The notes beneath the pieces were generated by a model that worked only from the letters and a program-made list of their open reading frames with translations, was not told where the DNA came from and ran no database searches. The translations under genes were made by a program, and so were the position numbers. From Escherichia coli (GTDB lineage: Bacteria; Pseudomonadota; Gammaproteobacteria; Enterobacterales; Enterobacteriaceae), in NCBI RefSeq assembly GCF_036507355.1, contig NZ_AP027877.1: a DNA stretch of 64,000 bases; one strand, given 5' to 3'. Positions 62,094 to 62,604 of the stretch are shown one piece after another (position 1 is the first letter of the stretch; the number at the start of each line of letters is the position of its first letter).

Positions 62094-62123
62094 GCCCTCT
62101 TCGTGGGAAGAGGGCTATTTTGT
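62094..62123 (+). terminator. ggt intrinsic terminator
   Basis: GGCCCTCTTC-GTGG-GAAGAGGGC hairpin followed by TATTTTGT. Confidence 0.75.
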
Positions 62124-62404
62124 CAGGGCAAGCCGAAGGTAGCCTTTTTTATTTCGTAATCCTGTAGATATTCTTCCAGCGGCTTTGCCGTTCCCAGAGA
62201 ATGAATTTCACCACTGTCTTTATCAATAATAAAAGGTGCGTTACCAGCTAAGCGCGCGGCCTCATCTCCAGTTTCGAGAAATTCTCGTGCTTCGAAACAG
62301 AAATACCAGCCCTGGCTAAAGCGTCCATGTAGAGTAATGACGACCGGGAGATCTGCATCATCAAGGTAATGGTTCGCTTTCGCGAATGCGTCGTGATAAG
62401 TAAT
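62123..62404 (-). pseudogene. yrhB: yrhB-like open frame lacking a canonical start codon
   Basis: Minus-strand frame of 93 sense codons (ITYHDAFAKANHYLDDADLPVVITLHGRFSQGWYFCFEAREFLETGDEAARLAGNAPFIIDKDSGEIHSLGTAKPLEEYLQDYEIKKATFGLP) with no ATG/GTG/TTG, hence absent from the ORF track; resembles K-12 YrhB as I recall it. Confidence 0.5.
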
Positions 62405-62604
62405 TATAATTATAATAAATATTATTGTTGAGTGTTATATTATTATTCCTGTGTGATACATTGAGCAAAGGCGCGTTCATCTTCGTCAAAGATATTATTA
62501 AATGCTGGTTTTGAAAAAAGTTCATCGGATAAGATATAGTCACGAAATAAGTATCTGCTAATATTTTGTGATTTTTTTCAGAACGTCGAACGGGATTTTC
62601 TTAT

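Follow-up and report, generated by a model that had tools for sequence, protein, structure and literature searches.

Near one end of the stretch of Escherichia coli DNA analysed here (64,000 nucleotides of contig NZ_AP027877.1, assembly GCF_036507355.1, referred to below as the window), a frame resembling yrhB runs convergent with ggt and carries no start codon where one would be expected. The question raised by this locus is what became of that start. The sequence-only reading had offered three answers, namely a mutation of ATG to ATA, the use of a non-canonical ATT or ATA start, or decay of the gene together with a neighbouring toxin cluster. We consider it likely that the window holds a private and recent start-loss allele of yrhB, null or strongly reduced in output, in which the only usable start has changed from ATG to ATA. 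The following features are needed for the argument:

60340..62085, plus strand: ggt (gamma-glutamyltransferase), convergent with yrhB, intact
62093..62116, plus strand: G+C-rich hairpin between ggt and yrhB (10 pairs, then ATTTTG), likely a shared terminator
62123..62407, minus strand: yrhB frame (Imm35 family), 94 codons and a TGA stop, from translation, Pfam and the RefSeq orthologue
62401..62416, no strand: perfect hexamer tandem of 2.7 copies (TAATTA on the plus strand), made by the single-nucleotide change (Tandem Repeats Finder, period 6, 100% matches)
62405..62407, minus strand: former yrhB start codon, now ATA, from alignment with K-12 DH1 and PS10-3
62408..62447, minus strand: A/T-rich yrhB leader with near-cognate codons in frame, from the sequence and a codon listing
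62605..62760, minus strand: yrhD (51 aa), intact
62855..63349, minus strand: yrhA (164 aa), starting at ATG and intact (NCBIfam NF038335 'YrhA family protein', E=1.5e-36)
63346..64000, minus strand: tssD/yhhZ (3' part only), a fusion of Hcp and an HNH nuclease, from alignment and translation

The frame convergent with ggt proved to be a real gene, as had been supposed from its letters. On the minus strand, 62407..62126 translates into IITYHDAFAKANHYLDDADLPVVITLHGRFSQGWYFCFEAREFLETGDEAARLAGNAPFIIDKDSGEIHSLGTAKPLEEYLQDYEIKKATFGLP, which reads IITYHDAF...KKATFGLP and ends at a TGA stop (62125..62123). Searched against Pfam, the product matched PF15567 (Imm35, "immunity protein 35") with E=4e-23 and 81.8 bits, about three times the gathering score of 27.5 bits for this family, and residues 5-83 were aligned to positions 1-85 of the 85 in the profile. 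Zhang et al. 2012 (PMC3482391) note conserved W and [ST] residues in Imm35. The YrhB sequence has a W (in GWYF) and several S/T, which may correspond to them. RefSeq genomes of E. coli contain an orthologous 285-bp CDS labelled yrhB ('YrhB family protein'), and the shared gene order ggt/yrhB/yrhD/yrhA/tssD as well as the near-identical sequence establish the orthology. Positions 4-285 have 100% nucleotide identity to yrhB of the complete genome GPT24-02, and codons 2-94 show zero differences from the commonest E. coli allele. A comparison of the main allele with divergent ones recovered from metagenomes gave 7-10 synonymous and 2-6 non-synonymous differences (pN/pS ~0.08-0.17), and with a ratio around 0.1 the frame is under purifying selection, which again argues for a real gene. 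A sequence search found no relative of YrhB in the PDB.

Upstream, the frame is closed by an in-frame TAA at 62437..62435. Between this codon and the stop, the sole canonical start is a TTG at 62131..62129, which is codon 93 and lies two codons before the stop, so that the earlier statement that the frame holds no in-frame ATG, GTG or TTG is right in every way that matters and wrong for this one codon. The start site reads ATA (62407..62405) followed by ATT ACT TAT on the minus strand, exactly as had been reported. Alignment to other E. coli yrhB, a check that the sequence-only reading had proposed, places ATG at the homologous position in both K-12 DH1 and strain PS10-3. The mutated base is 62405, with T on the plus strand where relatives have C, which corresponds to G->A on the coding strand. 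A 91-nt probe carrying the ATG version matched exactly in approximately 2,858 of 5,426 complete E. coli genomes, and the ATA version had zero exact matches in these 5,426 genomes, its best match being 98.9% identical, i.e. one mismatch away. With a 24-mer that allowed any letter at the variable base we found 53 metagenome contigs, every one of which has G (ATG); counting four loci that had been fetched earlier, ATG is present in 57 of 57 yrhB loci. A 30-mer with ATA (GCGTCGTGATAAGTAATTATAATTATAATA) was absent from the same metagenome collection. It also found no match in species-representative genomes, where a control probe open at the variable base likewise matched nothing, and that collection is accordingly uninformative on the locus. 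With a canonical start in the orthologues, ATA in the window and no in-frame canonical start to rescue it, yrhB is start-lost here. We use the term private for this allele in the sense of absent from what was searched, the DNA-searchable collections being ones that exclude most draft genomes.

The closest sequences found were the read-run assemblies SRR32181686 and SRR17480487, which come from the same clone as the window. Contig 85 of SRR32181686 is identical to window positions 50340..64000 over 13,661 bp except at 62405. Contig 27 of SRR17480487 is identical to 59920..62505 over 2,586 bp, again except at 62405, and contig 417 of this assembly adds a further 1,029 bp identical to the window. 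Both assemblies have ATG in yrhB, and in both a 94-aa Imm35 gene was called. The lineage itself is mosaic and uncommon, with every complete E. coli genome at or below 98.4% identity over the last 20 kb of the window. In a comparison with the best complete genome, GPT24-02, identity per gene between 44000 and 64000 ranged from 96.2% (livM) to 99.9% (ugpQ). A look-up with RpoH for more of the clonal contig returned unrelated E. coli only and was uninformative on the clone because RpoH is too conserved. A single G->A substitution of the ancestral ATG, private to this genome and recent, would explain the missing yrhB start, which is the first of the three answers given above. We take the mutation to be very young, since codons 2-94 differ nowhere from the commonest allele and show no secondary decay.

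There is a small but real chance that the T at 62405 arose by mistake in sequencing, polishing or assembly, in which case the strain would really have ATG and a normal yrhB. Across 13.7 kb and 2.6 kb, two assemblies of the same clone disagree with the window at this base alone, and the remainder of yrhB is flawless. Moreover, the ancestral sequence at this site is an imperfect repeat, ATTATA-ATTATG-ATTA, which the substitution makes perfect. This is compatible with templated misalignment in replication, and equally compatible with an artefact, as consensus building or polishing could introduce such a change in a short repeat. Against an error speaks that the change is a substitution and not an indel, and that nearby homopolymers have at most 3 bases. 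The A/T tract of 49 bases at 62399..62447 was correctly recognised beforehand as A/T-rich (90% A+T), but it is not homopolymeric as had been claimed, its longest run being 3 bases. A homopolymer sequencing problem, on account of which the sequence-only reading had advised checking the reads, does not fit a substitution that lies outside any homopolymer. The G:C->A:T transition is the commonest spontaneous substitution in E. coli, which also weighs against an error, and systematic long-read errors are usually located at Dam (GATC) and Dcm (CCWGG) sites. The context of the change, TAAT[C/T]ATAAT, has neither motif. Because the changed base is outside homopolymers and outside these motifs, a systematic long-read error becomes somewhat less likely. 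As a separate observation, the substitution converts TATGAT into the consensus -10 element TATAAT, with TCAACA 17 nt upstream (10/12 match in total, 62403-62431, minus strand); a new promoter was nevertheless rejected, as 3 promoter-like sites were found against 2.5 expected in shuffled sequence.

The leader upstream of the former start offers little to hold a ribosome. No Shine-Dalgarno-like sequence occurs within 30 nt upstream of the yrhB start, and yrhB is listed in a review among mRNAs with a weak Shine-Dalgarno sequence and an A/T-rich leader (PMC7873864). The predicted fold around the start is weak with either allele (-4.3 and -4.7 kcal/mol). According to Hecht et al. (bioRxiv 10.1101/063800), initiation at AUA, AUU, AUC and CUG amounts to 1-2% of that at AUG with a strong ribosome binding site on a high-copy vector, and to 0.02-3% of AUG in low- or single-copy constructs. 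Since the leader has no Shine-Dalgarno sequence and the frame no other canonical start, translation of YrhB would be expected to fall to a few percent or less, the level of near-cognate AUA and AUU codons. A downstream start cannot give the whole domain because Imm35 begins at residue 5. The allele would then be null or a strong hypomorph whose coding sequence is still pristine. Two other open frames at this site were considered as routes to yrhB translation and ruled out. An 8-codon mini-ORF in the yrhB frame (62461..62435, minus strand; ATG...MYHTGIII, then TAA), which lacks a Shine-Dalgarno sequence and probably arose by chance, ends at its TAA 27 nt upstream of the yrhB start. A 60-aa ORF beginning with GTG (62543..62361, minus strand), which has a 47-nt overlap with the yrhB start, is out of frame, unannotated in RefSeq, A/T-rich and of low complexity, and probably spurious.

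That useful amounts of YrhB are still made from AUA or from flanking in-frame AUU and AUA codons, so that yrhB would be a physiologically relevant, working gene in the manner of infC and pcnB, we regard as highly improbable. Near-cognate codons do initiate measurably, and infC and pcnB, which start at AUU, are the only confirmed cases of a non-canonical start in E. coli (10.1101/063800). The yrhB leader has five consecutive near-cognate codons in frame (ATT ATA ATT ATA ATT), and these, lying in an unstructured A/U-rich leader, could together permit some initiation. Nevertheless, no more than ~0.02-3% of the AUG level would be expected, there is no Shine-Dalgarno sequence to hold the ribosome, and the ATA allele is unique and carries no sign of selection. 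Complete E. coli genomes, metagenome contigs and clonal relatives were searched, and none of them carries it. An evolved ATT or ATA start, the second of the answers offered at the outset, finds no support, given that no other genome searched has the allele, though leaky initiation at a low level is possible. Were initiation at AUA or AUU relevant after all, the allele would represent a naturally occurring case of an E. coli gene using such a start, and not a null.

The third answer, decay alongside a toxin cluster, has a factual basis in the adjacent genes. In tssD/yhhZ a premature TAA at 63735..63733, where intact alleles have GAA, leaves an Hcp part of 263 aa without its HNH tail. The untethered tail is an 81-aa ORF starting with ATG (63591..63349, minus strand), in which the HNH match is weak (E=8.5e-4), and the exact 263-aa Hcp product occurred on 5 contigs only in a large assembly collection. 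There is also a 2-bp deletion in the spacer between yrhD and yrhB, at ~62574/62575 (GAAAAAGAAATC -> GAAAAAAATC relative to K-12 and PS10-3), which is intergenic and lies downstream of yrhD. Both changes could be taken as signs of a coordinated decay of the tssD-yrhA-yrhD-yrhB island, in which inactivation of the toxin relaxed selection on the remaining genes, but we find this unlikely. Both are older than the loss of the start: the deletion is common to the clonal contig of SRR32181686, as seen in a gap-free alignment, and the TAA is shared by SRR32181686 and by GPT24-02, the RefSeq annotation of which labels the gene as a pseudogene with 'internal stop'. Both of these genomes have the tssD nonsense codon yet keep ATG in yrhB, and the nonsense mutation predates the change of the yrhB start and is independent of it. 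Furthermore, neither yrhA nor yrhD is damaged, nor is yrhB from codon 2 to codon 94. The idea of decay with the toxin cluster is thus right in a loose sense only, in that tssD/yhhZ carries a nonsense codon. Nor would yrhB be expected to depend on an HNH toxin, because Imm35 is linked to Tox-PL1 and Ntox40 toxins (PMC3482391). The region is not in general decay, and the other 20 annotated genes that were mapped in the 44-64 kb part of the window are all intact with ATG starts. This part of the window also contains an ataR/ataT toxin-antitoxin cassette between livJ and panM (47173-47973) and a 248-aa TPR gene between livF and ugpB (53732-54478). At these two sites, which look like small hot spots of variable cargo, other E. 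coli loci are empty or carry something else, e.g. Phd/Fic.

The start-loss allele appears in a gene that E. coli can evidently spare. Imm35 proteins have been associated with papain-like Tox-PL1 and with Ntox40 toxins and may be peptidase inhibitors (Zhang et al. 2012, PMC3482391). The neighbours of yrhB in the window are ggt, yrhD, yrhA and the Hcp-HNH gene, and since Imm35 goes with Tox-PL1 and Ntox40 and not with HNH nucleases, yrhB stands at this locus as an orphan. The presumed immunity gene of the HNH toxin is yrhA, because it directly follows the toxin gene, a presumption made from position only. The yrhB locus is covered to at least 80% in 3,788 of 5,426 complete E. coli genomes, and about 30% lack most or all of it, which makes the gene dispensable. 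Since roughly one E. coli genome in four has no copy of this orphan gene, its loss would probably be neutral or nearly so.

Most likely, the loss of the yrhB start is therefore an ordinary, recent and private knock-down or knock-out, less probably a base-call error, and in either case nothing novel. For annotation we suggest that yrhB be flagged here as a start-lost pseudogene or hypomorph, or that the base be rechecked, and that no non-canonical start be forced upon it. The allele may serve as a clean example of a very young inactivating substitution in a dispensable, orphan, immunity-like gene. Furthermore, should the strain of the window be obtainable, it and its clonal relatives form a natural isogenic ATG/ATA pair, with which near-cognate initiation could be measured in a native leader devoid of a Shine-Dalgarno sequence.

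Among known systems, infC and pcnB resemble yrhB of the window in having a near-cognate AUN codon at the site of initiation. Their AUU starts are experimentally confirmed, whereas the ATA of yrhB occurs once only and was found in none of the relatives searched. A second likeness is to the orphan immunity genes of polymorphic toxin systems (Zhang et al. 2012), since here too an Imm35 gene is found in a toxin/immunity island without an adjacent Tox-PL1 or Ntox40 toxin. In contrast to those immunity genes, the immunity role of YrhB is a prediction, and a chaperone-like activity is the sole experimental claim found for this protein (Ahn et al. 2012, in the form in which PMC10723866 cites it). The Hcp-ET1/ETI1 module of type VI secretion (Ma et al. 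2017, as far as outlined in the review PMC6730261) combines Hcp with an HNH DNase, and tssD of the window is similar and is followed by the small yrhA. The likeness is one of domain layout, and the effector in the window is split by the nonsense codon. As for yrhB, it comes two genes later and is of another immunity family. The closest counterpart is yrhB of K-12 (94 aa, Pfam Imm35), which occupies the same site between ggt and yrhD/yrhA and has the same length and stop as the gene in the window. In K-12 yrhA is interrupted by IS1, of which yrhA in the window is free, and the first codon of yrhB is ATG in K-12 and ATA in the window.
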